From: a virus
Lineage: Duplodnaviria; Caudoviricetes
IMG/VR virus record: IMGVR_UViG_3300030107_001272
Location: 1-56,938 of that record
DNA: 56,938 bases
Reading direction: 5' to 3' (one strand)
Both the position numbers and the translations under genes were made by a program. The notes under the pieces were generated by a model. It saw nothing but the letters and a program-made list of their open reading frames with translations. It made no database searches and was not told the DNA's origin. This document shows positions 2,733-36,743 of this stretch, piece by piece. Position 1 is the first letter of the stretch. Every line of letters starts with the position of its first letter.

Positions 2733-3460
2733 TGGCTTATAATTTTATTGGATTAGTAAATGAAGTCAACAGAAGACTCAACGAGGTAGAGATAGACAAT
2801 ACTTCTACTGCCTTTATAGCCGCTACTGGCTTTTATAATACAGCTAAAGATGTCGTTAATGCTTCTATTAGACACATACAACAGGAAGAGTTTGGGTGGC
2901 CTTTTAATCATATAGAAGAAGAAGAAGTACTAGCAGTAGGTATTACAAGATATAGCTATCCAGAAGATGCTAAGTCTATAAATATAGACAGCTTTAGATT
3001 AAAAAGAAATGATACTCTTAATATTGCTACCATTAAATTAAAAGCAATGGACTATCAAGAGTATCTTAATAAACATATTGATTATGAGTATAACACAAGC
3101 AGTACTCTAAGAGGTGTGCCTAGATTTATTATTCGTGCGCCTAGTGATGAGTTTATTATTATTCCTACTCCTGATAAAGCCTATGAATTAGTCTATGAGT
3201 ATTATAGAAATCCTATTGACTTAGAACTTTTTAATGATGTACCTAATATACCTAAAGAGTTTAAATATGTCATAGTAGAAGGGGCTATGTACTATGCCTA
3301 TCAATTTAGAGGTGATGTACAGAATGCCCAACTATCACAACAAAAGTTTCAAACAGGCATTAAACACATGCGTTCTCTTTATATTAATAGATATGAATAT
3401 ATTAGATCTACTGCTATTGAACAAGGCAGTATCTCAAATAATGTACTAAGAGTTTCTTAA
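2732..3460 (+). CDS. tail adaptor / tail tubular protein A-like
   Basis: 242 aa, N-terminal LVNEVNRRLNE, PTPDKAY, position before the large tail nozzle gene. Confidence 0.65.
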   Translation: MAYNFIGLVNEVNRRLNEVEIDNTSTAFIAATGFYNTAKDVVNASIRHIQQEEFGWPFNHIEEEEVLAVGITRYSYPEDAKSINIDSFRLKRNDTLNIATIKLKAMDYQEYLNKHIDYEYNTSSTLRGVPRFIIRAPSDEFIIIPTPDKAYELVYEYYRNPIDLELFNDVPNIPKEFKYVIVEGAMYYAYQFRGDVQNAQLSQQKFQTGIKHMRSLYINRYEYIRSTAIEQGSISNNVLRVS

Positions 3461-5376
3461 TGGCAACAGAGTGGCAGACATTTCCAATTGAATTTAAGGG
3501 TGGTCTTGTATCTAATCTAACTCCCTTACAACAAGGTATTCAGGCTGTGGGTTCTGCAACAGTATTGCAAAACTTTGAGCCTAGCATTTCAGGTGGATAT
3601 AAAAAAGTATTAGGCTACTCTAAATTTAATAGTGATCTTATAGCAGGTAGTGGCGTTATGCAAGGTGTAGCTGTTACCAATAACACAACAACTACTACGG
3701 CTGTTGTTGTAAGATCAGGAGCATTTTATGAAGTTACTGCAAGTTCTATTAGTAGTTCTGCATTAGCAACAGGATCTACAACTTCATCTACTAAGGTACG
3801 GTTTACACATTTTAACTTTGACGGTACAGATAGAATTATGTTTGTTGATGGTGTAAACTTTCCTGCTCACTATAGCGCAGGTTCAGTTACTTTTTTATCA
3901 ACTTCTAATACGACAGGTGCAGGTGCAGACGTAGAAGATGCTACCCACGTAGTTAATTTTAAAAATCATCTAGTGTACGCCAAGGGTAGGAATATTATTT
4001 TTAGCGCACCCTTGACGCATACAGATTTTACATCAGCAAATGGTGCAGGTACTATAGATGTTGGTGGTACAATTACTGGGCTAATTGTTTTTCGTGAACA
4101 GTTAATGATTTTTACTGCCAGTTCTATTAGTAGGCTAACAGGAGATCACAGAGAAGCTTTTTCTTTACAACCAGTTACAGGAGACATAGGCTGTACAGAA
4201 GATGATAGTATTCAAGAAATTGGTGGTGACATTATGTTTCTCTCACCTGATGGACTTAGACTCTTATCTGCTACAGAGCGTATCGGTGACTTTAACTTGA
4301 ATGTTCCTTCTAATACAATTAAAAATACATTTAACAATTTTATTACAGGTAATAATAATTTCCATAGTTTAACCTTACGAGAAAAAAGTCAGTATAGAAT
4401 ATTTGGATATAAAAGTAGTACAATTTCTACTGATTCTGCAGCAGGTATATTAGCTACTAAGTTTTCAGCACAAGGATCTGAAGGATTTCAATGGGCTACC
4501 CTTAAAGGTTTTGAAGTTTATTGTGGAGACTCTAGATATTTAGGAGCAAATGAAGTTGTTCTTTTTGCTAATGATGATGGTTATATTTATCAAATGGAAA
4601 AAGAAGGTGAAGTATCCATAAACTACAGACAGTCTGCAGATGATGACGATGATGATGGTATAGCTGCAAGTCAATCTGTAGGCAGTGCAACTACAATGAC
4701 AATTAATGGGGCGTTAGCTTCAGGTGGGGCAGTCTCTTTAAATACACCTAAATTTGTTAGCATTAAAAGTGCAGGAGATGATTCGGGTAGAAACTTTGCT
4801 GTTGTTGGTACGACAGATGGTAGCACTGCATTAACAGAAAATATAACAGGATCAAATGAAGGTACAACTATAAGTACTAATGCCTTTCAAACAATTACTT
4901 CTATAACAACTAATGGAGCAACTGCAGGGGCAGTAACTGCAGGAGTAGTTGGAAAGAGTAGTATTGATTGTATATTTGTATCTCCGTATATGCCCATCAA
5001 TGATCCACAACAACGAAAGACTTTTTATAAGATAGCATTGTACATAGATCCTGATGGAGCATTTACAACAACGAGTAAAATTATATTAGATCAAAATTTA
5101 CCAGGTGCAGTACAACCACCAGTTATTTCGCCTACTATACAATTAAGTGGTACTGCTTCTGTTGCTATCTATGGAGATGAAAACTATTTATATACTACGT
5201 CATCCTCTACTTCTACAACAGCACCTAGATATGGATCAGAAATGCAAAGAGAATTTTCTAGACAATTAGTGGGATCAGGAAGAAACTTAGCAATTAGTAT
5301 AGAAGATAGTAGTACTAATCCATCTTTTACATTAGACACGGCAGTTGTTGAATACGCTGTTAATGATAGACTATAA
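3460..5376 (+). CDS. tail nozzle / tail tubular protein B (P22 gp10-like)
   Basis: 638 aa, beta-rich, IGC...SIQEIGGDIMFLSPDGLR motif, synteny. Confidence 0.65.
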   Translation: MATEWQTFPIEFKGGLVSNLTPLQQGIQAVGSATVLQNFEPSISGGYKKVLGYSKFNSDLIAGSGVMQGVAVTNNTTTTTAVVVRSGAFYEVTASSISSSALATGSTTSSTKVRFTHFNFDGTDRIMFVDGVNFPAHYSAGSVTFLSTSNTTGAGADVEDATHVVNFKNHLVYAKGRNIIFSAPLTHTDFTSANGAGTIDVGGTITGLIVFREQLMIFTASSISRLTGDHREAFSLQPVTGDIGCTEDDSIQEIGGDIMFLSPDGLRLLSATERIGDFNLNVPSNTIKNTFNNFITGNNNFHSLTLREKSQYRIFGYKSSTISTDSAAGILATKFSAQGSEGFQWATLKGFEVYCGDSRYLGANEVVLFANDDGYIYQMEKEGEVSINYRQSADDDDDDGIAASQSVGSATTMTINGALASGGAVSLNTPKFVSIKSAGDDSGRNFAVVGTTDGSTALTENITGSNEGTTISTNAFQTITSITTNGATAGAVTAGVVGKSSIDCIFVSPYMPINDPQQRKTFYKIALYIDPDGAFTTTSKIILDQNLPGAVQPPVISPTIQLSGTASVAIYGDENYLYTTSSSTSTTAPRYGSEMQREFSRQLVGSGRNLAISIEDSSTNPSFTLDTAVVEYAVNDRL

Positions 5377-5388
5377 AGGAATAAAATA

Positions 5389-8300
5389 ATGGGAACAGGT
5401 TACGTAAGAAACGATACATCAGGCAACATAGCTAACGGTAAAGTTATTGACGCTACAGACTTAGACGGTGAGTTTGACGCTATCGTAACAGCCTTTAGCA
5501 CATCAGGGCATACCCATGATGGTACAACTGCAGAAGGTGGGAAGGTTACTAAACTGTTAGGTACAAGCTTAACATTAGGAGATGGCACTGCAGGTACAGA
5601 TATTACTGTAACTTTTGATGGTGAAGATAATGATGGCATTTTAAAATGGATGGAAGATGAAGACTACTTTCAATTTAATGATGACATTCTTATGAGTACT
5701 AATGAAAAACTTCAGTTTAGAGATACAGGTATCTACATCTCCTCTAATGCTGATGGTGACTTAGATATTGTATCTGATGGTACGGCTGTAGATTCTATTA
5801 ATATTGAGTCAGCAGGTGGGATCACTCTTGATGCAGGTACGGCAGCTAGTGGTGTTATCTTTGAAGATGACGGTACAGAGATGCTACGTATCTATAATAG
5901 TAGTAGTGATGTTTATATAGAGTCTAAAGTATCAGATAAGGATATTCTTATTAGGGGCAATGACGGTGGAAGTGCAGTTACAGCCGTGACCTTTGATATG
6001 TCTGCTGCAGGATTAGCCACATTTGGCGGTGGCGTAACGTCTACGGCTGTAGCTAATACATTAGGTGCTACCTCTTTTAACGATGCAAACATAACTAATG
6101 TAGGTAATATAGCTCTTGACAGCATTACGGCTGATGGATCTACTATTACAATTACAGGTAACACTACCTTTGCTGACGGTGCATATAACTTTAACATTGC
6201 ATCACACGATGGATCTAATGGATTACAATTAGGTGGTACACTAGTAACTGCTACTGCTACAGAACTAAACATCATAGATGGAGTTACAGCTACAACTGCG
6301 GAGTTAAACATTATGGATGGAGTTACTGCAACTACTGCAGAACTTAACATTATGGATGGGGTAACTGCTACCACTGCAGAACTTAACATTATGGATGGTG
6401 GTACAAGTGCTACTTCTACTACTGTAGTTGATGCTGATAGAGTTGTTCTTAACGACAATGGAAGTATGGTTCAAGTAGCAGTAACCGACTTAGCTGCATA
6501 CTTTGATGACGAGATTACAGCTATGCCCAATCTTGTAACGACTGCAGCTACAACTGTAGGAGCTTTAAATAGTGGGTCTATTACATCAGGTTTTGGAACT
6601 ATAGATACAGGTTCATCTACAATTACAACTACAGGTTTAATATCAGGTGGGTCTTTAGATATTGATGATGTTCTTATCAATGGAACTACAATAGGACATA
6701 CAGATGACACAGATCTTATTACATTAGCTGATGGAGTTGTTACAGTAGCAGGGGAAATAAGTGTTACAACTTTAGACATAGGTGGTACGAATGTTACTTC
6801 TACTGCTGCTGAATTAAATATACTTGATGGTGTTACAGCCACTGCCACAGAATTAAATATTATAGATGGAGTCACTGCAACTACTGCAGAGTTAAACATT
6901 ATGGATGGAGTTACCTCTACAACAAGTGAACTTAATCTTTTGGATGGTTCTGCTAAGTCTACTTCTTCTATTACTATTGCAGATGCCGATGCCTTTATTG
7001 TTATTGATGGAACTACTACTAAACAAATACCTGCTTCTGATATTGCAACATATGCTACAGGTAGCACAGGTGTTTTATCAACTGGTACAAGTAACACTGC
7101 TATTGGTTCTGGTGCTTTAGATTCTGTACAATCTGGTGGTAATTATAATACGGCTCTTGGTTTTAATGCTCTTACTGCTGTTACACTTGCTGACAATAAT
7201 ACAGCCGTTGGTTTTGAGGCAGGAAAAAGTATAGTAGAAGGTAGTTCTGGTAATGGAAGCCACACTCTTGTAGGTTATATGGCAGGGTCAGAACTTACAA
7301 CAGGCGTATATAACACGCATGTAGGGTGGAGTGCAGGTTTAAATGCTACCACAACAGACAGATGTGTTTTTATTGGACACAGTGCAGGTCATGGACAAAC
7401 GAGTGGCGTAGCTAACACAGGTGATGACAATACTTTTGTTGGAGGTAACGCAGGTTCTTATACTACAACAGGTAGTAATAATGTAGCTTTAGGAGGGTCT
7501 GCTTTAGGGAGTCTTACCACAGGTGATACTAATGTAGCAATAGGTGGTGCTGCAGGTAATGGTATTACTACTGGAAGTAAAAATGTAGCAATTGGTTATA
7601 ACTCTTCAGATGCAACTACAACTGCAGATAAAAATACTACTGTAGGATATGAAGCTTCTAAAAGACTTACGAGTGGAACTAACAATGTTATCCTTGGTAA
7701 CAAAGCAGGTATGGGTGTTATTACTGGAGATCATAATGTTGCTATTGGTGGTGAAGCAGCTATGGGCTTTGGCGATGTTTCTTTGCTTGAAAATGAATCT
7801 GCTTATAATGCTTTTACCGTAGGAGATAGAAATGTAGCTATTGGTAGTAGGGCTATGTATAACTCAGCTACTGCAAGTGATGCTACTGAAAAAAATACGG
7901 CTGTTGGATATGGGGCATTAACAACTGTTCAAGGTGGTGACAACAATACAGGTATTGGATATAATGCAGGTGATAGTATTACTGATGGTACTAATAATAC
8001 TTGTATTGGTTATCTGGCTGATACTGCTGCAGCTGATTCTGATAATTCTATAACGTTAGGCAATTCATCAATTTCTTCTTTAAGGTGTGCAGATACATCT
8101 ATATCTTCTTTGTCAGATGAAAGGGATAAGAAAGACATTGTGGATTCAACCTATGGTCTTGATCTTTTAAAAACTTTTAGGCCAGTTTCTTTTACGTGGA
8201 ATAAACGCCCAGAAACAGCAACTAAACCTTCTTGGGTGTCTGATGAGGAATGGAAGAAAGAACAAGATGCAATAAGCAACGCAGTAGATCCTTACAAAGA

Positions 8301-25921: not shown

Positions 25922-26683
25922 TTATACTCCTATGTTGGTTAGGTTTTCTATATCTATTTCGTTTCTATACTTCAAGTCATCGGTCAACTTCAATACACCT
26001 ACCTTGTCTACGTGTTGGCGTAGCTCTTTGGCGAACTGCATTGTCTTAGGTAACGCATCGGGATCTAACGCTACAATTGCTGTTGAGAACTGCGACAAGT
26101 ACTTCTTGTGTGCTTCGGAAAGTGACGTACCCAACACAGCCACCCCGACATATACGCCAATCTCGCCTACAACTACAGCACTGACGCAATCCTCAACAAC
26201 TACAGCAACAGTACCACACCCATAAGTAAAAGGCAAGTCACTATTGCCATACCTTTTCCACTTAGGTAGTCGTTGGTCTGTTGCCCTACCGATTGCGTCT
26301 ACACATCTCCACGATTTCCATATGGTAAACACAACACGATCCTCTTTAACATCGTACATCAACTCCAGATCTTTAGGTAGTCGGTATTGATCTACAAACT
26401 TTTGTGTATAGGATGGTTGATAGACTAGTTGTTTAGGTAACTCCCAATCTATATCACTACTAGTATCCTCTGGTGGTGCAAAAGATTTCTTAATGTCCTC
26501 TGCACTCAAGCGTACACGCTTACCCCCACTCACAGTACAGTTAGCTTTATAACAATTCCATATCAAGCTACCCATATTGTTAGTGATAGTAAATGTTTTC
26601 CTACCCCTACACACAGGACAGTCAACACGTTTAGTCTCACCATTCTTAACATCATAATCCCATACACTCCACATGTTATACAC
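25922..26683 (-). CDS. DNA primase (zinc ribbon plus TOPRIM)
   Basis: CPVC...CYKANC, VVEDCVSA, ALDPDA. Confidence 0.85.
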   Translation of the reverse strand: MYNMWSVWDYDVKNGETKRVDCPVCRGRKTFTITNNMGSLIWNCYKANCTVSGGKRVRLSAEDIKKSFAPPEDTSSDIDWELPKQLVYQPSYTQKFVDQYRLPKDLELMYDVKEDRVVFTIWKSWRCVDAIGRATDQRLPKWKRYGNSDLPFTYGCGTVAVVVEDCVSAVVVGEIGVYVGVAVLGTSLSEAHKKYLSQFSTAIVALDPDALPKTMQFAKELRQHVDKVGVLKLTDDLKYRNEIDIENLTNIGV

Positions 26684-27788
26684 CCTCCTGCTGCTTCATC
26701 GCAGATGATACCCATGTTTTTCTAGTTGTCAAGGCATTAGTTGCAGATGCCAAAGTATTTTTCATATAGGGTGTAACTGACGCAGGGTTAGCATGCCCAC
26801 TAACAGACATGATCTGTGGTAGTGGCACACCACCATCAACCATCTCCATTATACCAGACCTTCGTAAGTCTAGTAGGCGTAGATCATCAGACAACTTAGC
26901 CTTGCGTATGACACGCCTACCTAATTGGGATAGGTTCATCTTACCATAAGGATGATATGCCCCATCAGTGGGGTTTACATTAGGTGCTACGTACCTTTGA
27001 AAGCCAAAGTCTTTTCTCTGATCAAGCAAAGTCTGTCGTAATGTATCATTCACAGGTAACTCCACCTCTGCCCTACGTTTAGACTGTTGTAAATATAACA
27101 CAGTCATGTCCTTATTGAATCTATCCCACTCTAATACACGCATGTCACCGACACGCTGACAAAACTCATAGGCCATCTGTACTATTAACGCAATGCTACG
27201 TGTAGAGAAATCAGCATATGCCACATCAAGAAACTGTTTAACTTCATCCCTCTTCCAAATGGCAGTTCTCTTTTGTGCAGCCACACGTTTAATGTTAGCA
27301 AAGGGATTCTTGTAGGCTTGCTCTTGTTCAATAGCATGATTGTATACACGTGATACACACGTACATACATGATTGGCAAAGCTAACACCACGTTCAAGCC
27401 ACAGTTGATAATGTTTCTTGGCTAACTTAGAACTAATATCCATGAATCTCCTCTGTCCTAGTGACTTATTTGCAACAGATAAAAAGTATTTGTAATCCTT
27501 CTGTGAGAAATCTCTTAACTTTTGAAAATCATATGACTCCAAGTAGCTGTTGATAAGACATGTCAAGGTACTATTTGATTTTATATTTGTAGCTGTTGCA
27601 TTTTTATCATACCATTCATCTATCTTCTGGTTGTCTTCACGTACCAGTTTACGTACCTGCTTCAGGTCAGACCCAAACTGTCTGCGTGTGACAACACCTG
27701 CATCGACTAACTTCTGTGGTGGGTTGAATCTGTACTCAACCACACCACATGCCGTAGTCCTAGCCTGTGTATATCTAGGAAGTTTCAT
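26676..27788 (-). CDS. int: tyrosine recombinase/integrase
   Basis: QRVGD, QSKR, DLRRS, SGH...PY catalytic motifs. Confidence 0.88.
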   Translation of the reverse strand: MKLPRYTQARTTACGVVEYRFNPPQKLVDAGVVTRRQFGSDLKQVRKLVREDNQKIDEWYDKNATATNIKSNSTLTCLINSYLESYDFQKLRDFSQKDYKYFLSVANKSLGQRRFMDISSKLAKKHYQLWLERGVSFANHVCTCVSRVYNHAIEQEQAYKNPFANIKRVAAQKRTAIWKRDEVKQFLDVAYADFSTRSIALIVQMAYEFCQRVGDMRVLEWDRFNKDMTVLYLQQSKRRAEVELPVNDTLRQTLLDQRKDFGFQRYVAPNVNPTDGAYHPYGKMNLSQLGRRVIRKAKLSDDLRLLDLRRSGIMEMVDGGVPLPQIMSVSGHANPASVTPYMKNTLASATNALTTRKTWVSSAMKQQEGV

Positions 27789-28651
27789 TAAGCTATCACC
27801 TTTTCTCTAGTTGTTAGGTCTTTCCATATAGGCGAAGAGATCCACTTGGCTACCTCTTTCTCACGCTTCCACATAGTCTCTGCCCTTGTGTCGTTACCTG
27901 TGTTACGTACTGTGAATCCATTACGTTCATCACCATACGTAGCGTAGTTAGTGAACGCACTGTATAAGGCAAAGAGATTCTCACCACGCTTACGTGTCTC
28001 TTCTCTGTACAAGGCAAGCATCTTGTCTGCCTTTCTGTCGCTATCCATCAGGTGATCAAGCACAGACTTAACACACAGGGTACGTGTGCTAACCTTACAC
28101 CAATCACTTAGCTTCTCTGCTTCATCTTCAAAGTTTACAACTGAATCAGCTAACTCACCTTGAAAGATATCTATATTAAATAAGGCAGAGTTCTTTTTCT
28201 TGATGTAGTTGTGATCACCTGTCACCATACCATTCAGACAGAACCCATCAATCAAACCATAGAATACTTGGTTGGAACACTTGCCATCCACACCATGTAG
28301 GGCAACCATTCGTTTGAATACTTCTGTTTCATGTAGGTCACTGGCAATAGTGATGCCTTGATCCTTGAAGATCGCATCCATCATAACGAATGCACCGTTA
28401 CGTGCTGATCGCCAGTTAATTTCAGCTAAGAGACAAGACTCTACACCTAGTGTCTCTTCTACTGTAGCCCACACTTTGTCGTAGTATTCACCATGACTAG
28501 TGAGTGCGTAGCTATCTCCTACTATACCTAGATAATCTCCTGAGTAGTCATTCACTACATAAGATTCTCCTTTAAATAGAGTAGGTTCTTTGCGTACCTT
28601 AAAGTTTAAATCGTAAGGTAGTTGGTGGTTTGTTACAAAATCTAAAGCCAT
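27788..28651 (-). CDS. DUF932-like protein
   Basis: LGIVGDSY...H, HGVDG, FCLNGM, LYSAFTNYAT pattern. Confidence 0.65.
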   Translation of the reverse strand: MALDFVTNHQLPYDLNFKVRKEPTLFKGESYVVNDYSGDYLGIVGDSYALTSHGEYYDKVWATVEETLGVESCLLAEINWRSARNGAFVMMDAIFKDQGITIASDLHETEVFKRMVALHGVDGKCSNQVFYGLIDGFCLNGMVTGDHNYIKKKNSALFNIDIFQGELADSVVNFEDEAEKLSDWCKVSTRTLCVKSVLDHLMDSDRKADKMLALYREETRKRGENLFALYSAFTNYATYGDERNGFTVRNTGNDTRAETMWKREKEVAKWISSPIWKDLTTREKVIA

Positions 28652-28689
28652 TTGTTTCTCCTTTGCTTTATTGTTTCAACTGATAACTA

Positions 28690-28718
28690 GTTATATCACA
28701 TATACTAATTTTAGTCAA
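28690..28718 (-). promoter_or_regulatory. sigma70-type promoter for the recombination/replication operon
   Basis: TTGACT-17 bp-TATAAC; RBS aaggag downstream. Confidence 0.8.
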
Positions 28719-28719
28719 G

Positions 28720-29112
28720 CTACTTGTAGAATATATGATCCCCCACTTGCTTAACAACTCGCAAGCTGTCTGCCCAATAGGGGTTTACTTCTGTGGTGTG
28801 ATAGTGTGTCGCACCATTCACTACATCTATACTGTTGTTGTCATCAAGCATCATACCTGCCAACATCATAGACTTCTGCCATGCTTTGTCCTCATGTGGT
28901 GTGTCACTTGCACCATCACATGTCCAAGAAAAAGCACAGATGCTCTTACCTTTTTGATACACTACATCACATACTGTATCAGGATAGTGTTTACTATCCA
29001 CTCTGTTGACAGTTACCTGTGCCACTGCCAACTGTCCTGCCGTACTCTGATCACGTGCTTCGTGATAGATGTTTAGTGCAAGGCAGACCAATGCACTTTT
29101 GAGTAATACCAT
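28720..29112 (-). CDS. SleB-like cell wall hydrolase (Hydrolase_2)
   Basis: CLALNIYHEAR...VAQVTVNRV...FSW...GATHYH...HIFY. Confidence 0.9.
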   Translation of the reverse strand: MVLLKSALVCLALNIYHEARDQSTAGQLAVAQVTVNRVDSKHYPDTVCDVVYQKGKSICAFSWTCDGASDTPHEDKAWQKSMMLAGMMLDDNNSIDVVNGATHYHTTEVNPYWADSLRVVKQVGDHIFYK

Positions 29113-29194
29113 TTGCTTGTAAACCTTTCTTCAATTAAAACTTCCCATGTATATGCTGCACATATGATCAGGAAAAAGATTGCGTTTCTCATAC

Positions 29195-29734
29195 TTAGAA
29201 ATCTCCTCTAACTTTTTGTCCAAGATGGATTGCCTTATGCAATTCACTTTCTAACTTGGTTTGGCTATCTCTGTTAGCTTGCCATAGAATACCTAACCCA
29301 CCTGCCTCTGTCCATCTCTTGATATTAGTGTGCTTGTCATCAACAAGGATGTTAGGTGTACCATCTACCGTATGGGTAGCATAGGTTTCTTTCTTGTGAG
29401 TGAACACCAAGTAAGGTATCTTATCGGGCATGAGATTATTCCTATTCAACCAACTGCGTTTCCAATAGGCAGAGTTATCTCTGTCATTACGCAAAGGTGT
29501 AGAACATATCCCCCAATCCAAGTGAGGATATTTATATGTCAACTCTTTGACATAGCCCACGATAGGATAGGTAGTCTCAAACATACCTAAGTATCCAAAG
29601 AAACTTGTGTCTTTTAGTTGAGATAGTGCGTCATCTATATCTGGTATATCTTTCCAATGCGTTACCTTGAATCTCTTCTCAAGCCCACCAAAGAAATCGG
29701 CTAACACACCATCCATATCTAAGTATATAATCAT
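29195..29734 (-). CDS. HAD-family 5'(3')-deoxyribonucleotidase
   Basis: YLDMDGVLADF, ILVDD...NIKRW. Confidence 0.85.
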   Translation of the reverse strand: MIIYLDMDGVLADFFGGLEKRFKVTHWKDIPDIDDALSQLKDTSFFGYLGMFETTYPIVGYVKELTYKYPHLDWGICSTPLRNDRDNSAYWKRSWLNRNNLMPDKIPYLVFTHKKETYATHTVDGTPNILVDDKHTNIKRWTEAGGLGILWQANRDSQTKLESELHKAIHLGQKVRGDF

Positions 29735-30489
29735 TATAATTTCTCCTCACAAAATATTCCACATTCAAAGTTATAATTTTTAAGTGATCTACCTCTTGCA
29801 TCTATAGGTAAATCTTCAAGAGATATTCTCTTACCTTTGTAGATAGCTAACTTAGCACCTATTCTTTTTGATTGTTCCACCCTCTTAGCAAATACTTTTG
29901 GAAACTTATCACGTACTAAGTTCCAGTAGGTAGGTGATCCTGCTTTGACACACCCAATACAATTTGCATTTGGAAATCCATACTTGTATATCTTTGGTGG
30001 TTCTATATTTGCACTAGCAATTACATCAAAGCAATCCTGTTTGGTTAATCCTTCATCTACTAATACAGGTATAAGATTATTTCTCTCTGTCATAATAAAT
30101 CTATCGGCTCTTTTCTTTTCTTCAGCCGTAAATCCTAGCACAAGATAATCAGAGTTGTTTTTATTCTCCCACTGTTGCCTTGCATGTTTCTTTAGTCTCA
30201 TAGTACAAGGCGCACCTGCAATACCACTCATGTATTTGTGCTTATCCCACACAGTTTCAGCAGAGCAGTCAGGAAAGTCTTCATTAATAGCATACTCTAT
30301 CGTTATGCCTAGCCACTTCTCTACATCCTGTAAAAATCTTTGATTGTCTTCATGCTCCTCTTTCACAGGATTGTTTACAACTCTAACCCTGTTATCTTTA
30401 CCATACTTCTTCAAGGTTAAATACGTAGCAACTGCACTAGCACTACCACAAGAAAACCAAACTGTAATATCTTTATTTTTTAAACTCAT
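29734..30489 (-). CDS. PAPS reductase-like / adenine nucleotide alpha-hydrolase family protein
   Basis: WFSCGSAS degenerate PP-loop, APCT..LK, GF.A.E..R, NANCIGCVK, C-terminal CGIFC. Confidence 0.7.
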   Translation of the reverse strand: MSLKNKDITVWFSCGSASAVATYLTLKKYGKDNRVRVVNNPVKEEHEDNQRFLQDVEKWLGITIEYAINEDFPDCSAETVWDKHKYMSGIAGAPCTMRLKKHARQQWENKNNSDYLVLGFTAEEKKRADRFIMTERNNLIPVLVDEGLTKQDCFDVIASANIEPPKIYKYGFPNANCIGCVKAGSPTYWNLVRDKFPKVFAKRVEQSKRIGAKLAIYKGKRISLEDLPIDARGRSLKNYNFECGIFCEEKL

Positions 30490-30839
30490 TTTCTCGTACT
30501 TTCTATGCTGTTAATCTTGTGTTCAAGTGTATGAACAGCATGACGTAATCCATAGGTTATACTATCTGTCCACTTATCTTGTGTTATCTCTGGCTTCTCG
30601 TCAATGTACACTCTAATGTGGGTACAAGCCTCAATAGGCGCACCTTTTGACCAATAGGTATCAGGGTACTTAACCTTGTCAAGGTACTGCCCCTTGACCC
30701 TTATATTGTATCTGTGCTTGTTTAAGTATTTCTTCATCAGCCTTACCAACTGCTGTCCTTCTTCGTCATTAGGTATCTCACAGAATTGATAGCGTGAATT
30801 CTTTTGGTAGTGCTTATGCTTTTCTAAATTAGTTTTCAT
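30486..30839 (-). CDS. hypothetical protein
   Basis: 117-aa ORF with ATGA overlaps. Confidence 0.6.
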   Translation of the reverse strand: MKTNLEKHKHYQKNSRYQFCEIPNDEEGQQLVRLMKKYLNKHRYNIRVKGQYLDKVKYPDTYWSKGAPIEACTHIRVYIDEKPEITQDKWTDSITYGLRHAVHTLEHKINSIESTRK

Positions 30840-31828
30840 CTCTTTACTCCTTTCAATGCTTGGTATCCACAGCCACAGCCATCAAACAAACTCACGACAG
30901 TACCAAGTGACTGTTCAGGTATGCCATTGAGTATGTGCTTGATCACATCCACTGTCCATCCATTACCTATCATCTTGTATCGCCTTGAATTGCTGATCTG
31001 TTTGACCTGTTTATCAGGGAAGATACCTACCTTGGTATACCAATCGGGCATAGTCTGCAATCGTTCACACTCAAGAGGTGTCAATGCTCTCCAACGTAAG
31101 TCACCATCCTCAACCTTCGGCATGCGCCACCCACCTTGCATGGTGGTCAGGCCAGAGGACTTAGCCTTACGAGAGTAGACACGCTTGATGATGTCATAGC
31201 CTTTGAGGTTAGCTTCACCCACTTGTCTGCATTGAGTATGCTTGTTGAACACCACTTGTCTACGTGCTTTCTCAAAGTACATCTTCATAGATCCACCCTT
31301 AAAATAGTTAGCGTCTACACAGTAGGCTTTCTCTCTGTCGGTCATGCTCTCATCCTCAAGGATATCCTCAAGGTTGATACCAAGATCAGGCAGATCGTCA
31401 TGGGGTATGTTAGTCCAATACAAACGCTTACGATTCTGTGCAGATACAGACGCAGAGTTATGTACACGTGGCTCACATCCGAACTCACGTGAGAACACAT
31501 CCATATATTCCTTCTTCATAGGAGTTTCTTCAATGAGAAAGTACTTAGGTTTCCACTGGTGGAACAACCTAAAGAACTCTATTGTAGGCTTGGCTCTCTC
31601 GTCATTAAAGTTAAGCTGATTACCTGCAAAGGAGAATGGTTGACAAGGTGGGCCTGCCATTAGCAGGTCTATACCTTTGTGTACATACATAGGCTGTTTA
31701 AATACATTATTTCTAACGTGCCTGATACCAAGTACACTACCTATCTGCTTTACGTCAGGGTGATTGTAGTGAGCGACCCCCATAGCGTAGGGGTCTATCT
31801 CACTTGCGAATGCTTGTTGGTATTGCAT
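30836..31828 (-). CDS. DNA cytosine-C5 methyltransferase, circularly permuted
   Basis: ASEID (II), GPPCQPFS (IV), QNRKRLYW (VIII), LTPLECERLQ (IX), IGNG (X), then VVSLFDGCGCG (I) at the C-terminus. Confidence 0.88.
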   Translation of the reverse strand: MQYQQAFASEIDPYAMGVAHYNHPDVKQIGSVLGIRHVRNNVFKQPMYVHKGIDLLMAGPPCQPFSFAGNQLNFNDERAKPTIEFFRLFHQWKPKYFLIEETPMKKEYMDVFSREFGCEPRVHNSASVSAQNRKRLYWTNIPHDDLPDLGINLEDILEDESMTDREKAYCVDANYFKGGSMKMYFEKARRQVVFNKHTQCRQVGEANLKGYDIIKRVYSRKAKSSGLTTMQGGWRMPKVEDGDLRWRALTPLECERLQTMPDWYTKVGIFPDKQVKQISNSRRYKMIGNGWTVDVIKHILNGIPEQSLGTVVSLFDGCGCGYQALKGVKR

Positions 31829-32160
31829 TAGCCATTAGCCTTTCTCTTTTGTCCGACATCGGACTTTGTTACAGTGTAGCTACCCTTATCTACAGTAGCA
31901 CCCTTGCCGTACTTACGCACAATATGATCAGGGTGATTCTTCTGAATGAACTGTATCCTATAGACAATCCTATTGAATGGCTCATTCAAAGTGGAAGCAA
32001 TCTCTTTGATAGTACAATCTTGGTATACTTCCATTAGTATGCCATCAATAGTCGCATAGTTGTAGCTATAGTTCCTTGCTCGTTTCATGTGGAACGTGTG
32101 ATTGCTGTAGTCTACAATTTCTAGGGCAGGGTTATTTGCTGTGTTGATTTGCTGTGTCAT
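31828..32160 (-). CDS. putative helix-turn-helix DNA-binding protein
   Basis: TIKEIASTLNEPFNRIVYRI resembles an HTH. Confidence 0.5.
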   Translation of the reverse strand: MTQQINTANNPALEIVDYSNHTFHMKRARNYSYNYATIDGILMEVYQDCTIKEIASTLNEPFNRIVYRIQFIQKNHPDHIVRKYGKGATVDKGSYTVTKSDVGQKRKANG

Positions 32161-32414
32161 AATAATTTCTCCTTATTATATGTTGTTGCATCTTGGGGTT
32201 GAAATATAAAACCTAGATCACTAGGCTCGTCTTCAATCTCGTACTCCTTTACGAAATCGAACTCTGTTTGAAGGTTAGGGTAGAATAGCTTTGCTAATCG
32301 CATCACATGATCTACCGCTTCCTTCCAATCTTTTACAGGTGTAGCATTACTATCCACTGTCACAATAGATGGTTGCTTTTCTATGGATACACCTATCTCA
32401 TAGTACATAGCCAT
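32157..32414 (-). CDS. hypothetical protein
   Basis: Probable start MAMYY at 32414 after RBS aaggag. Confidence 0.6.
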   Translation of the reverse strand: MAMYYEIGVSIEKQPSIVTVDSNATPVKDWKEAVDHVMRLAKLFYPNLQTEFDFVKEYEIEDEPSDLGFIFQPQDATTYNKEKLL

Positions 32415-32415
32415 G

Positions 32416-32535
32416 CTATCTCCTTCTCTTTGCAAGCGTGTCTATCTTAGCGACAAGCCAACCTGTTATAAAGCATGCATATCCAAATACACATGCCATG
32501 AAAAACCACATATAAATTTCAGGTATCTGTTCCAT
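32416..32535 (-). CDS. 39-aa membrane peptide (not in the ORF track)
   Basis: MEQIPEIYMWFFMACVFGYACFITGWLVAKIDTLAKRRR; TAATG coupling and RBS aaggag. Confidence 0.6.
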   Translation of the reverse strand: MEQIPEIYMWFFMACVFGYACFITGWLVAKIDTLAKRRR

Positions 32536-32681
32536 TACGCATATCTCCTTTTGTTTTTGCGTTCCTGTCTGTAGGCATTGCCATGCCTTGTCTTATCTCT
32601 GAGGTTAAGCTTCTTCTTCTGCTTGAACTTCTCAAAGTTCTTTACTTCGTAATGCGTTACGCTTCGCTTTCGCTCTGTCAT
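32535..32681 (-). CDS. 48-aa basic hypothetical protein (not in the ORF track)
   Basis: MTERKRSVTHYEVKNFEKFKQKKKLNLRDKTRHGNAYRQERKNKRRYA. Confidence 0.5.
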   Translation of the reverse strand: MTERKRSVTHYEVKNFEKFKQKKKLNLRDKTRHGNAYRQERKNKRRYA

Positions 32682-32787
32682 AGCTACCCTTTCCTTTCTT
32701 AGGTCTAACTGTTTGCATTGGTTTACGTAGCATCAGCATTGCCTTTGCTACAGGATTAACTCTTGTGATTGTAAGTTTCTTTTTCAT
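32632..32787 (-). CDS. ArfA-like small basic protein, 51 aa (not in the ORF track)
   Basis: MKKKLTITRVNPVAKAMLMLRKPMQTVRPKKGKGSYDRAKAKRNALRSKEL; TAATG-coupled to the upstream gene. Confidence 0.65.
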   Translation of the reverse strand: MKKKLTITRVNPVAKAMLMLRKPMQTVRPKKGKGSYDRAKAKRNALRSKEL

Positions 32788-33521
32788 TACGCTACCCACT
32801 TCTTTCCTGTGCCATGTGCAGGTATGAGTATGGACTTGGCATTGATCTTCATGCCACTACATAGCTTACACTTGTCACATGTAGTACGTCTACCTGCTTC
32901 CGCACTGGCAGGACATAGCACCTCTTTGTCTTTCACCATAGATGTAAGGTGGCCTACCCTAAAGGTACGTTCACCTTTTGCCCAAGCTACCTTGGCTTCT
33001 TCCACTGTGTCAGCACTACGCATGCACACAGTAGGATCGTAGTCAGCACCAACTGTATTAGCTTGGTGACTGTAAGCCGTATGTGCTTTAGCATGCTTGA
33101 TCCATAGCTTGTTATTTCTTTTAGGCACACAAGCAGGATCACCGTACATACCTAGACGTACAGTCCTATCCCTTGTCATCTCAACAAAGTCAACCGTCTT
33201 GATGCGAGGGTATTTACCTGCCTTGTATGCTTTGTACACACCTAGTATACTTAGCAACATGACATAACATCCACGTTCATCAGCCGTAGCCCGATCATCT
33301 CTGTCATGTGGCTTGCCACGTAAATGACACGTGCCACAGATAGAGTAGTCTTCACCACTCTTGTTGGCAGAGATAGGATCAATGTCACTACGTATGTATA
33401 GGATTTGGATCATGTTACCTGTCTTGCTATTGTTACTACCTGTTAGTGCTATAGCTACGATAGGCTTGCCATCAAGTAAGCTATCACCTTCGTATAGTAT
33501 ATATCCACTTGGCTTAGTCAT
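32787..33521 (-). CDS. Cys-rich protein, possibly Fe-S / radical-SAM-like (Gp88-like)
   Basis: SNNSKTG, ICGTC...CY, RLGMYGDP, TAYSH, CPA...CDKCKLC...HG. Confidence 0.5.
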   Translation of the reverse strand: MTKPSGYILYEGDSLLDGKPIVAIALTGSNNSKTGNMIQILYIRSDIDPISANKSGEDYSICGTCHLRGKPHDRDDRATADERGCYVMLLSILGVYKAYKAGKYPRIKTVDFVEMTRDRTVRLGMYGDPACVPKRNNKLWIKHAKAHTAYSHQANTVGADYDPTVCMRSADTVEEAKVAWAKGERTFRVGHLTSMVKDKEVLCPASAEAGRRTTCDKCKLCSGMKINAKSILIPAHGTGKKWVA

Positions 33522-33561
33522 CTCAATACCTTTCAGTTAAATTGTCCGACATCGGACTTTG

Positions 33562-33807
33562 TTACCCTTCATTACCACAGAGGCTATCCCATTCAGCAGG
33601 TGTCACACCTGTCATAATGAACTCACGCTGATCTGCATCAAGCGCAGGGAATACGTCTTGAACACACTCATCCCCCATGTAGTAGCGATCAAGCATACCC
33701 TGCGTGACAGGCAACACCATTGAGTTCACATTACCTGTGAAGTCTGATGAACGAGTGAGTTCTACTGAACCCTCTGCTACATGAGTACAATTCCAATTAG
33801 TAAACAT
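33562..33807 (-). CDS. small early hypothetical protein
   Basis: VQDVFPALDADQREFIMTG.TPAEW; RBS aaagga; flanked by two 18-bp repeats. Confidence 0.7.
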   Translation of the reverse strand: MFTNWNCTHVAEGSVELTRSSDFTGNVNSMVLPVTQGMLDRYYMGDECVQDVFPALDADQREFIMTGVTPAEWDSLCGNEG

Positions 33808-33848
33808 TTAATTTCCTTTCAGTTAAATTGTCCGACATCGGACTTGTT

Positions 33849-34091
33849 TCAATCTAGGTCTAAGACCCATTCGCCATACCTAAACCACGCTAGGTATACA
33901 GGCTGAAAGTAATTTCTACCCATTGCCTTATGAATGGGATAGTCTGTAGCATTTTCATCTCTACACTCCCAAACCTTAATCGTAGGTACGCCATTCAGGT
34001 GAACTACCTCTTTGACTTCGCACTCTACATACCCATAGTCTGTGCCGTAGCCTGAGTTAATCTTGTGACATGTTACTTTCATACCTTGCAT
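33849..34091 (-). CDS. small early hypothetical protein
   Basis: 80 aa; RBS aagga; flanked by two 18-bp repeats. Confidence 0.65.
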   Translation of the reverse strand: MQGMKVTCHKINSGYGTDYGYVECEVKEVVHLNGVPTIKVWECRDENATDYPIHKAMGRNYFQPVYLAWFRYGEWVLDLD

Positions 34092-34153
34092 GATTTTATC
34101 CTTTTCAAATTGTCCGACATCGGACTTGTTTCAGTTAAGTTATATTATATTAG

Positions 34154-34192
34154 TTATATAACACTTTCATATACATTTCAAGTGTTATATAA
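34154..34192. repeat. 13-bp perfect AT-rich inverted repeat
   Basis: TTATATAACACTT (34154-34166) and AAGTGTTATATAA (34180-34192). Confidence 0.85.
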
Positions 34193-34249
34193 ATAATATA
34201 TTATAAAGGCAGTTTATAGAGTTGCCTAGCTCTGCTAGTGAAAAGTTAC

Positions 34250-34954
34250 CTATAAAGGTAACTCTTCGGTAGTAATGGTCATGTTTTCTTCATCCACTGT
34301 TGGATTGCACACAGGTCTAGTTGTGCTTATTCCGAGCAATTCAGATAAAGGTAACTCTTCGCTTGTGTTGGCTACCTTTTGAGTAGCTTGAAAGTCAGTG
34401 ACAGGATCATCAGCTTCATCCATAAGTAGCTCTGCTACTTCCAGTATGCTGATGTTATGGACTTGTGTCCACAGCTTGACTGCTTGTACCAAGCTCTGCT
34501 TGCTTGAGCCTAGACTGATACTATCAGTACGAACCTCTGCTTTCGGTTTAGCTTCGCTAATGGTAGCTTCGCTAGATTGTCCGACATCGGACTTAACATC
34601 ACCTTCGGTGGAAGGCTTGTTTGCCTTGTTCACCGCTTTCTGCAAAGCAGATAAGCTTGTGAAACCTTTCTTGGACTTGGAGATGAAATCTCTAGCTACC
34701 TCTTCGTTTTCAACGAACCACAAAGCTTCGCTTCGTCTTTGCTTTGGGATATCCTTGAGACCAACTCTAGAGAGTTGAGCAGAGGATATACGACCATTTG
34801 GGCTTTCAGCCTTGAGTTGCTTCAGCAACTTGCCTAACCGAGTGTCAAAGCCTTTGGCTTGAGTAGTAACCCTAACGCAGTTAAGCTTTTTCCACCAAGC
34901 ATTTAAGGCTTTGCCTTCTCTGACGAGGTCAGCGATGTTTGCATAATTTCCCAT
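34250..34954 (-). CDS. first early gene, hypothetical
   Basis: 234 aa, RBS aagga, immediately downstream of the leftward promoter. Confidence 0.7.
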   Translation of the reverse strand: MGNYANIADLVREGKALNAWWKKLNCVRVTTQAKGFDTRLGKLLKQLKAESPNGRISSAQLSRVGLKDIPKQRRSEALWFVENEEVARDFISKSKKGFTSLSALQKAVNKANKPSTEGDVKSDVGQSSEATISEAKPKAEVRTDSISLGSSKQSLVQAVKLWTQVHNISILEVAELLMDEADDPVTDFQATQKVANTSEELPLSELLGISTTRPVCNPTVDEENMTITTEELPL

Positions 34955-35041
34955 TTCGATTTTCCTTTGTTTGTTTTGGTTTTGTTTTTATAAGAGAACA
35001 ATATATCTCTCACAAGAAGTGAGATATATTTTCTCGTTAAA

Positions 35042-35070
35042 AACATAAACCAATACAACCTAGCTGTCAA
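35042..35070 (-). promoter_or_regulatory. leftward (early) sigma70-type promoter
   Basis: TTGACA-17 bp-TATGTT. Confidence 0.65.
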
Positions 35071-35424
35071 GTCGGTGAGGGGATATGTACCACACTAACT
35101 AAAGTTAGTGATAGGTGTATTTTTGGGGTATCTGTGGCAGATTTATCTGTCAACTGATGTGATAACAGTTTAATCTTTCGATTAAATGCCTTATTTTGTT
35201 GGGTTTTGTCAGCCTTGTGTGGATGGATGACGCATGCTTGTGTTCACATTTGCGTGGCTAGGCTACCTAGGCATGTATCTGTGTACATACAGGGGTGTAG
35301 GCAAGGGCCAGTGCGCCCCCATACGTATACGTATACACATATATACACAGATCAGGTAAATCACTTGTTAACCACAGTATATGTATCATAAATAACACAC
35401 ATCTAGTATAATCGTACACACATA

Positions 35425-35453
35425 TTGACTACCCTATTGTTTTGTGGTATAAT
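35425..35453 (+). promoter_or_regulatory. rightward sigma70-type promoter with extended -10
   Basis: TTGACT-17 bp-TATAAT, preceded by TGG. Confidence 0.8.
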
Positions 35454-35476
35454 TATATATAGACATAACGAACGGT

Positions 35477-35552
35477 ACACTTTAACTGTCTACACTTTAA
35501 CTATATATTACCTAAAATATAAATAACACTTTAAATGCTAAACACTTAAACT
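35477..35552 (+). repeat. four 11-bp direct repeats, ACACTTWAAMT
   Basis: Copies start at 35477, 35492, 35526 and 35542. Confidence 0.8.
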
Positions 35553-35601
35553 GTGTATTGTTAACATAAATATCCGTACTAATTAAAAAAAGATATTGAC
35601 A

Positions 35602-35808
35602 ATGGCTAAAAAATCAGTAAAACTATACACAGACAATGTTATTGAAGAGTTTTATAAAGCTATAGCTAATAACAGTCTGCATAAACTCCACATACCACAT
35701 AGTGATGTATTCTACGTAAGAAAGGCGGTAGAGTCTCGCTATGGTAGGTCTTTTTCACTTAAAGAAGTGGAAGAAGCGATGATCGCTGAAGGGTGGTCTG
35801 GTAATTAA
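35602..35808 (+). CDS. hypothetical protein
   Basis: IPHSDVFYVR motif; probable ATG at 35602. Confidence 0.6.
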   Translation: MAKKSVKLYTDNVIEEFYKAIANNSLHKLHIPHSDVFYVRKAVESRYGRSFSLKEVEEAMIAEGWSGN

Positions 35809-35828
35809 AGTAAAAGGAAACTTTAAAT

Positions 35829-36743
35829 ATGGCAAGAGATTACAGTACTAATAGATATAAAGATAAAATTAAGAAGATACAACAGCAAAAAAGAACAGCT
35901 GCAGATAAAAGAAAATCCGTAAAGGATCTTAAACGAGAGGTATCTTCTAATAAAAAGATTGACGCTCGTAATAGAAAGAATAAAGCTAATGAAGCTTTTG
36001 GTAAAAGAGTCGATACGATTCTAAGTTTATTTACAGGTAATAAAAAAGCTAGGCCTGGTGCTAGGTCAGGAATTAAGACTGGAACTAAGACAGGGTTAAA
36101 TAGACCCATGAGTTTTAGTGATACAGCTAAAAAGAAAACATCACCTACAGTTGTAGCACCAAAAACTTACAGAAGTGGTAAGGTAGGAACACCAGGAATG
36201 GGAACACGTAGTGGAGTACAGACAGGTAAAAAACCTGAAGCAGGTGGATTTTACGCCTATGACAGACAGGGTAAAAAGGGTGAAAGCCCTAAAGCAAAAT
36301 CAAGAGCAACCCCTGGAACACCAGGAATGGGAACACGTGCAGGGCCTAAGACAGGTGGCAGGAAAGCTAAGACCTTAACTGAAGCTCAAAAGAAAGCTAT
36401 ACGAGATACAAAGCAAGTAACAGTTAAGAGTGGAGATACCTTAACCTCTATAGCAAAAAGTAAAGGCACAACGGTAGCTAATCTTAAAAAGATTAATCCT
36501 CAAATTAAAGATTTTGATAAGATTAAACCAGGACAAAAGATTAGATTTGGTGGATCAGATGCTCCTACAAAAAGAATAAGCGAAGTATCAAAGTCTCCTA
36601 CAAGGCCACGTACCATAGCCCAAGCACAGAAGATGGGCAAGAAGTACTTTTATGATAAGAATGGTAAGCGTAAGGCTGCCGTAACTGCAGAGCAGCTGAA
36701 GAAGTCAGGTCTAACCCTGTCTCAATGGCTTAAAAAGAAATAG
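35829..36743 (+). CDS. Lys-rich protein with a LysM domain
   Basis: VTVKSGDTLTSIAKSKGTTVANLKKINPQIKDFDKIKPGQKI. Confidence 0.8.
   Translation: MARDYSTNRYKDKIKKIQQQKRTAADKRKSVKDLKREVSSNKKIDARNRKNKANEAFGKRVDTILSLFTGNKKARPGARSGIKTGTKTGLNRPMSFSDTAKKKTSPTVVAPKTYRSGKVGTPGMGTRSGVQTGKKPEAGGFYAYDRQGKKGESPKAKSRATPGTPGMGTRAGPKTGGRKAKTLTEAQKKAIRDTKQVTVKSGDTLTSIAKSKGTTVANLKKINPQIKDFDKIKPGQKIRFGGSDAPTKRISEVSKSPTRPRTIAQAQKMGKKYFYDKNGKRKAAVTAEQLKKSGLTLSQWLKKK

Follow-up and report, generated by a model that had tools for sequence, protein, structure and literature searches.

The window, by which we mean the whole stretch of DNA analysed, is a complete virus record of 56938 bases (CheckV, 100% complete). A block of genes on its minus strand carries a putative cytosine-5 (C5) DNA methyltransferase together with a DNA polymerase, a DnaB-like helicase, a primase, a tyrosine integrase, an endolysin, a 5' deoxyribonucleotidase and a PAPS reductase-like protein. 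The second gene downstream of the methyltransferase encodes the PAPS reductase-like protein (29734-30489; phrog_424, E 2.8e-44), and together with the adjoining 5' deoxyribonucleotidase gene it may form a DNA or nucleotide modification module. The position of the tyrosine integrase gene (26676-27788) within the replication block suggests that the phage is temperate. The window contains no tRNA gene, and a megablast search of positions 28000-36000 against phage records returned no match. The sequencing runs that contain the window's stretch are all labelled marine, seawater or aquatic metagenomes. No recognisable restriction enzyme lies beside the methyltransferase; the neighbours of 110 and 117 residues are without Pfam match and might conceivably include a small nuclease of unfamiliar type, and the other nearby genes encode replication proteins, the nucleotidase and the PAPS reductase-like protein. 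Given this lack of an evident nuclease partner, the methyltransferase is most likely an orphan enzyme with a self-protective role. The features of the gene and its flanks are as follows.

30836..31828, minus strand: whole ORF of 330 aa plus TGA, putative circularly permuted C5 DNA methyltransferase with motifs II-X followed by motif I
31835..31837, minus strand: in-frame TAA, three codons upstream of the ATG (open frame 31834-30839)
31828..32160, minus strand: upstream ORF of 110 aa without family match, its stop overlapping the methyltransferase start
30486..30839, minus strand: downstream ORF of 117 aa without family match, its ATG overlapping the methyltransferase stop
31793..31813, minus strand: motif II AFASEID (aa 6-12), the new N-terminal strand
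31622..31654, minus strand: motif IV GPPCQPFSFAG (aa 59-69) with the catalytic Cys62
31523..31540, minus strand: motif VI FLIEET (aa 97-102), Glu100 retained and the usual NV changed to ET
31415..31444, minus strand: motif VIII SAQNRKRLYW (aa 129-138) with R133 and R135
31103..31381, minus strand: variable region with the target recognition domain (about aa 150-242), a single recognition module
31055..31090, minus strand: motif IX RALTPLECERLQ (aa 247-258), from sequence and HMM alignment
30929..30982, minus strand: motif X helix RYKMIGNGWTVDVIKHIL (aa 283-300), from sequence, HMM alignment and model
30902..30928, minus strand: linker NGIPEQSLG (aa 301-309), from the old C-terminus to the old N-terminus
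30839..30901, minus strand: motif I tail (aa 310-330), comprising strand 1, the glycine loop FDGCGCG and helix A

Inspection of the translation revealed that the 330-residue minus-strand ORF opens at motif II (MQYQQAFASEID) and closes with motif I (TVVSLFDGCGCGYQALKGVKR), which lies beyond motif X (RYKMIGNGW), in agreement with the earlier note on this DNA. The SAM loop FxGxG is present as FDGCGCG at aa 314-320, near the C-terminus. Motif VIII has its QxRxR signature (Q131, R133 and R135) and motif X its GNG (G288-N289-G290). Cys62, Glu100, Arg133, Arg135, the motif X GNG and the glycine loop are all kept, and the catalytic residues all fall in columns invariant across 62 relatives; Gly59, Pro61, Cys62 and Gln63 of motif IV are likewise invariant across the 62 sequences. 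Glu10 of motif II is invariant in alignment A1, and the structure model has a strand at aa 2-9. Motif III reads GSV in the subgroup of the window protein versus GDV in most relatives, a substitution of serine for aspartate.

The TAA of the upstream ORF overlaps the methyltransferase ATG (TAATG at 31826-31830), and the TGA of the methyltransferase overlaps the ATG of the next gene (ATGA at 30836-30839). The coupling of the start to the upstream stop, on which the earlier note had based its view that a mis-called start is unlikely, is thus seen in the sequence itself. That view is strengthened by the in-frame TAA at 31835-31837, since a stop three codons upstream bars any extension of the start, and an N-terminal motif I would not fit. 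When all six frames of the window were searched with the family HMM, this single gene was found and no other methyltransferase remnant.

The protein matches Pfam PF00145 with 93.9 bits (cut-off 22), aa 4-303 aligning with profile positions 23-322 of 324. As the alignment starts at profile position 23, the first 22 positions, which are precisely the motif I portion of the profile, are missing at the N-terminus. A family HMM was built from 93 canonical relatives, drawn from 122 proteins (P0001-P0122) and picked by an N-terminal motif I pattern plus a C-terminal GNG. Positions 28-309 of this HMM aligned with aa 3-306 of the window protein (435.7 bits) and positions 6-22 with aa 310-326, the latter match being weak when taken alone (5.5 bits, E 0.0065). 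The break, at HMM positions 22-28, thus falls in the loop that connects helix A to strand 2. In length the protein is about one unit, and its ends do not overlap. In a phmmer search against the PDB, aa 311-327 matched motif I of DNMT3B, and aa 261-325, across the X-to-I junction, were colinear with DRM2 residues 181-249 (E 0.002). The canonical linear order I to X is absent from the window protein; of the family hallmarks, it lacks only this order and two of the three motif VI residues. By sequence and predicted fold, the protein is a member of the C5 methyltransferase family. The split alignment that had been suggested as a check therefore upholds the order II-X then I, as the Pfam alignment (aa 4-303 against positions 23-322) and the family HMM, which puts motif I at aa 310-326, agree, and the order is conserved in relatives.

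A scan of viral contigs yielded 79 loci, seven of which (L006-L012, from seven datasets) match residues 1-330 with the same start and tail and carry in-frame stops 2 to 17 codons 5' of the ATG. A protein search returned 13 clusters, formed at 90% identity (P0003-P0015, of which P0015 is a fragment), which are 67-100% identical to the window protein and share its ends; the window's own cluster occurs on three contigs. The bridging of the gene ends was judged from contigs rather than reads, by comparing four sequencing runs. Contigs of the probable source run, X1, cover 30706-31208 and 31180-32300 with 0 mismatches. Three runs of other studies also contributed: a contig of X4 covers 30766-30979 with 3 differences, contigs of X5 cover 30836-30979 and 30768-30865, and a contig of X2 covers 31488-32224 with 31 differences. 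Both gene ends, whose coverage had been named as a point to check, are bridged by contigs of other sequencing runs, and misassembly is not supported.

A second group with the II-X-I order is formed by P0020 (343 aa) and P0025 (397 aa), which are about 50% identical to the window protein, start just ahead of motif II and end in motif I. In P0020, family HMM positions 3-24 align with aa 307-328 (E 1.2e-05). The viral record of this group, with 10 N within the gene, was left out as support. Judged from these sequences, the II-X-I topology is not unique to the window gene. A quick maximum-likelihood tree was computed for the II-X core (48 rows, 282 columns). In it the group of the window protein, clade A, formed a single branch (SH-aLRT 100), and the second group (P0020, P0025 and P0039) was nested with eight canonical genes (SH-aLRT 98). 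An independent origin of the two II-X-I groups, as in the best tree, was dropped as a settled point, as one clade of clade A plus the second group was not rejected by the AU test (p 0.446). P0039 is 91% identical to P0020 in the core. It and P0018 carry motif I at neither end, and could be split enzymes, broken genes or mis-called genes.

Several further observations concern the integrity and modularity of genes in this family. A canonical relative in phage T2S2-k141_370465 (L004, 1102-1160) has an in-frame stop in motif I, and its deposited CDS starts downstream. The homologous methyltransferase of Vibrio phage ICP1_2006_E (L002, 1138-2136) is annotated as two CDS, a 'short' one and a long one, and is thus split in this isolate. 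Methyltransferase matches in Sulfurimonas and Campylobacterales genomes (L177, L179 and L180) cross open frames of 35-37 aa, which suggests frameshifts or interruptions near motifs I-III. At 31094-31109 of the window, contigs in X1, X2 and X4 carry 159-164 extra letters, which match longer relatives (373-389 aa) with an additional recognition module; in natural populations, this domain thus appears to be built of modules and to be polymorphic.

The earlier note had also drawn attention to motif VI, reading EET instead of ENV. This is confirmed in the window protein, and EET is fixed in clade A, being present in 12 of 12 rows in which the pattern was found, versus 2 of 189 other rows, of which 182 have ENV; these counts leave aside 127 of 328 rows without a pattern match. 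The second II-X-I group retains ENV at this position, indicating that the permuted topology is independent of EET.

The tail of clade A is nearly invariant even in DNA, and substitution counts are therefore small. For the most diverged pair, the window versus L011, the last 24 codons gave a pS of 0.42 and a pN of 0.09, compared with 0.50 and 0.13 for the rest of the gene. Selection on the tail in this pair thus resembles that on the core (pN/pS 0.21 versus 0.26), the core ratio ranging from about 0.1 to 0.3 across pairs. Amino-acid changes in the tail are found in the linker and the last two residues, while the motif I core varies only between Tyr and Phe.

The AF2 model, computed from a 62-sequence alignment, has a mean pLDDT of 77.4 and a pTM of 0.81. 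In the tail it predicts a strand (aa 307-314) followed by a helix (aa 320-326) with a block pLDDT of 87-92; the recognition region is modelled weakly, with a pLDDT of <50 for aa 162-213. Foldseek and VIA-align searches place the model among C5 methyltransferases. Superposition of aa 1-308 on M.HhaI residues 31-324 yielded a Z score of 21.7 and an rmsd of 3.0 over 262 aligned residues, and that of the same model residues on DNMT3A 655-911 a Z score of 23.3 and an rmsd of 2.5 over 235. The aligned stretches of both M.HhaI and DNMT3A correspond to the canonical enzymes minus the first strand and helix. DRM2 was absent among the 50 VIA-align rows listed.

The docking of the tail was examined by folding the core (aa 1-300) and the tail (aa 301-330) as two chains, which gave an ipSAE of 0.87 versus 0.01 for the best control. 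Among solved complexes 58 of 80 attain the mark applied to this score, and among mismatched pairs 2 of 110, a calibration that is only rough for the core/tail fold, for which its own alignment was supplied. The runs share at least 99% of contacts, with a partner pLDDT of at least 89. Tail residues 310-314 contact residues 54-57, the strand before PCQ, and residues 6-8 of the motif II strand; tail residues 320-324 contact residues 293-297 of the motif X helix and residues 23 and 26. The sheet of class I methyltransferases has the strand order 3-2-1-4-5, and with this order the contacts put the tail in the position of strand 1 and helix A. The prediction thus supports docking of the tail in the strand-1 slot, flanked by the strand of motif II and the one that precedes PCQ, although this result may in large part reflect solved C5 methyltransferases memorised by the model. 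The structure prediction proposed in the earlier note, which asked whether the C-terminal strand completes the Rossmann fold, accordingly comes out in favour: the strand is predicted in the strand-1 slot, completing the SAM-binding sheet.

Based on the alignments and the predicted structure, we propose that the window gene encodes a natural circular permutant, a probably active stand-alone phage cytosine-5 DNA methyltransferase whose tail completes the SAM-binding sheet. The chain would start at strand 2 (motif II), run through motifs IV, VI and VIII, one recognition module and motifs IX-X, and then pass through a linker of about nine residues to strand 1, the glycine loop and helix A of motif I. 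In the predicted fold, the tail slips in between strands 2 and 4 and thereby completes the SAM-binding sheet. The reaction would follow the usual chemistry, with Cys62 attacking C6, Glu100 and Arg133/135 holding the flipped cytosine, and SAM donating the methyl group. Methylation of the phage's own DNA would then protect it against host restriction. The topology may have originated when neighbouring methyltransferase genes fused in frame and the outer parts were then lost.

Other explanations were weighed against this proposal. The window is a metagenome-derived virus record, and the sole viral record of the second II-X-I group has a 10-N run within the gene, both of which might hint at an artefact of assembly or gene calling; however, both gene ends are common to the seven contigs from seven datasets, and contigs of X1 (without a mismatch), X4, X5 and X2 cross the gene regions, so that an artefact can practically be dismissed. 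The gene could instead be a decaying remnant, left when a methyltransferase gene that had lost its 5' end ran on into the opening codons of a neighbouring methyltransferase gene, with an inactive product. The change of motif VI to EET and the serine for aspartate in motif III of the window's subgroup would be in line with decay, and the close relatives P0039 and P0018, without motif I at either end, together with the T2S2 phage gene with its stop within motif I, indicate that broken forms do occur in this methyltransferase family. Yet the intact ORF recurs with the same ends in 13 clusters and seven contigs at 67-100% identity, the pN/pS ratios of the core are low at about 0.1-0.3 and that of the window/L011 tail is close to the core value, the catalytic residues are all kept, and the window has no second methyltransferase remnant. 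Decay is therefore considered improbable.

An active enzyme might also use its tail in trans, two chains swapping tails so that motif I of one completes the SAM pocket of the other. The tail docks with a high score as a separate chain, which makes such complementation sterically plausible, and split C5 methyltransferases complement each other in vivo according to the accessible part of the engineering study PMC5944983. Nevertheless, the stretch from HIL of helix X to SLFDG of motif I measures 12 residues in clade A, type C, clade B and P0133, and 13 in P0146, and the junction is close to the summed length of the two free ends of the canonical relatives. In addition, the native termini of M.MpeI lie close together (PMC5944983, accessible part), and the single-chain model places the tail at the high pLDDT given above, so we regard a tail swap as distinctly improbable. 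Finally, the fold may have been kept while the function changed, to another substrate or to DNA binding without methyl transfer, alongside the replacement of ENV by EET. The near restriction of EET to clade A (12 of 12 rows versus 2 of 189 others) speaks for such a change, but the retention of Cys62, Glu100, Arg133, Arg135, the motif X GNG and the glycine loop, and of ENV in the second permuted group, makes it very improbable. The reading we prefer is that of a natural, probably active permutant with its tail in its own SAM-binding sheet.

Further permutation types were found among the relatives. A protein search with the junction only (aa 271-330) returned 69 proteins. Apart from clusters of clade A, these include ten (P0123-P0132) in which motif IV comes first and motifs I-II-III come last. 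Two others, P0133 and P0146, are of the M.BssHII type, with the N-terminus in the recognition domain and the C-terminus past motif VIII. On DNA, the IV-X-I-III order is present in six viral loci (L103, L105, L106, L108, L109 and L111), with HMM positions 65-308 followed by 6-64, and a IV-X-I-III gene is located on a 2-kb MAG contig (L178). The TRD-first form (P0133) was seen on no viral contig in the scan, and no II-X-I gene was found among 21 loci on bacterial or archaeal genome contigs. A search of 1.84 billion representatives with a profile that spans the X-linker-I junction (48 positions) gave 3564 matches at E <=0.001, of which the best 150 were examined; these included 149 new proteins. 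Among the matches listed, a domain-order script recognised motif X followed by motif I in at least 39 of the 149, at least 16 of them beginning at HMM position 68-72, with a threshold that missed II-X-I rows because of the low score of their motif I stretch. The junction stands at the very end only in P0013 among the matches listed.

Inspection by eye of proteins from the representatives search also revealed a complete tandem fusion, I-X followed by I-X (P0182, 618 aa). Two other proteins, again by eye, have a 5'-truncated first copy fused to a full second copy (P0188, 459 aa; P0180, 556 aa). A search for longer proteins with the junction found no tandem fusion, returning only P0179, a canonical enzyme of 702 aa with a long insertion. 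On a 160-kb viral contig (L082, identical to L124), three C5 methyltransferase genes are arranged head to tail at 2890-5560, and such adjacent genes are raw material for in-frame fusions. The similar linkers (IPE..L.TVV) of the window and IV-X-I-III groups raised the question of a common fusion event. This was rejected as unproven, since endings in SF[IL]P[KE] and starts with TVVSLFDG are both frequent among canonical relatives. A duplication-fusion-truncation model is reportedly due to Jeltsch in 1999 and Peisajovich in 2006, and the adjacent, fused, truncated and permuted forms together match its stages. We give an even chance to the broader proposal that the family is a living record of permutation by duplication, with adjacent genes, a fused dimer, truncated dimers and at least three topologies (II-X-I, IV-X-I-III and TRD-IX-X-I-VIII). 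Recombination among neighbouring methyltransferase genes may be the driver, and would shuffle recognition modules too. If this is true, the breaks between I and II and between III and IV represent natural classes of C5 methyltransferases missed by the 2018 REBASE survey, as far as the accessible part of its report goes. The fused and truncated relatives are candidate natural intermediates for the duplication-fusion-truncation route demonstrated in the laboratory. In practice, profile annotation calls such permuted genes N-terminally truncated and may discard them as pseudogenes, and they are natural scaffolds for split or permuted methyltransferases in targeted methylation.

C5 methyltransferases are a textbook case of fixed motif order. 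The 2018 survey of 20,677 REBASE entries lists 27 natural permuted C5 methyltransferases, all broken in the variable region (PMC5944983, accessible part). Natural breaks between I and II or between III and IV were described nowhere in the literature searched (subscription journals and REBASE itself aside). The canonical phage orphan enzymes PHB05 ATI15780.1 (Escherichia phage) and CRP-9 gp12 (Roseobacter phage) are 36-45% identical to the window protein over aa 1/7-305 and have all motifs and a related recognition module in common with it. Enzymes of this type start with motif I (M.VLSLFDGMS.G) and end about five residues past the motif X helix, whereas in the window protein motif I follows motif X. 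DRM2, a eukaryotic protein with UBA domains, has the motif order VI-X then I-V, its termini lying between motifs V and VI. Its X-to-I junction is colinear with that of the window protein (PDB 7l4n, 7l4c and 4onj), but the latter has motifs II-V ahead of VI rather than termini of the DRM type.

Similar to the window protein, the natural enzymes of type H (M.BssHII, M.Alw26I, M2.Eco31I, M.Esp3I and M2.BsaI) have motif X before motif I. Type H is broken in the variable region, with the order IX-X-I-VIII (PMC5944983, accessible part), whereas the window protein is broken between I and II: its N-terminus is at HMM position 26-28, not in the variable region with IX-X first. The claim of the earlier note that both M.BssHII and DRM2 break elsewhere thus holds. 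Ten engineered topologies were active in the accessible part of PMC5944983. Among those described there, cp35M.MpeI, with its new start at residue 35, scored ++ in vivo and was poorly soluble, and cp33M.SssI, starting at residue 33, protected plasmid DNA; both constructs had activity in vivo and, by their numbering, would be broken between motifs I and II. The window protein likewise has its N-terminus just past motif I. The two constructs are artificial versions of CG-specific Mollicutes enzymes (same source and part), whereas the window gene is natural and conserved. Evolution uses the topologies broken between I and II and between III and IV, while engineering, on the part of the study accessible, had only proved such permutants viable. 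The natural IV-X-I-II-III permutants (P0123-P0132 and the six viral loci) belong to the same phage family and have a similar junction, with 12 residues between HIL and SLFDG, but they are broken between III and IV, keep ENV and are far more numerous than the II-X-I type of the window. Judged by sequence and model, the best description of the window protein is that of a natural, probably active permutant with its break between motifs I and II, in an unusually permutation-rich phage family.
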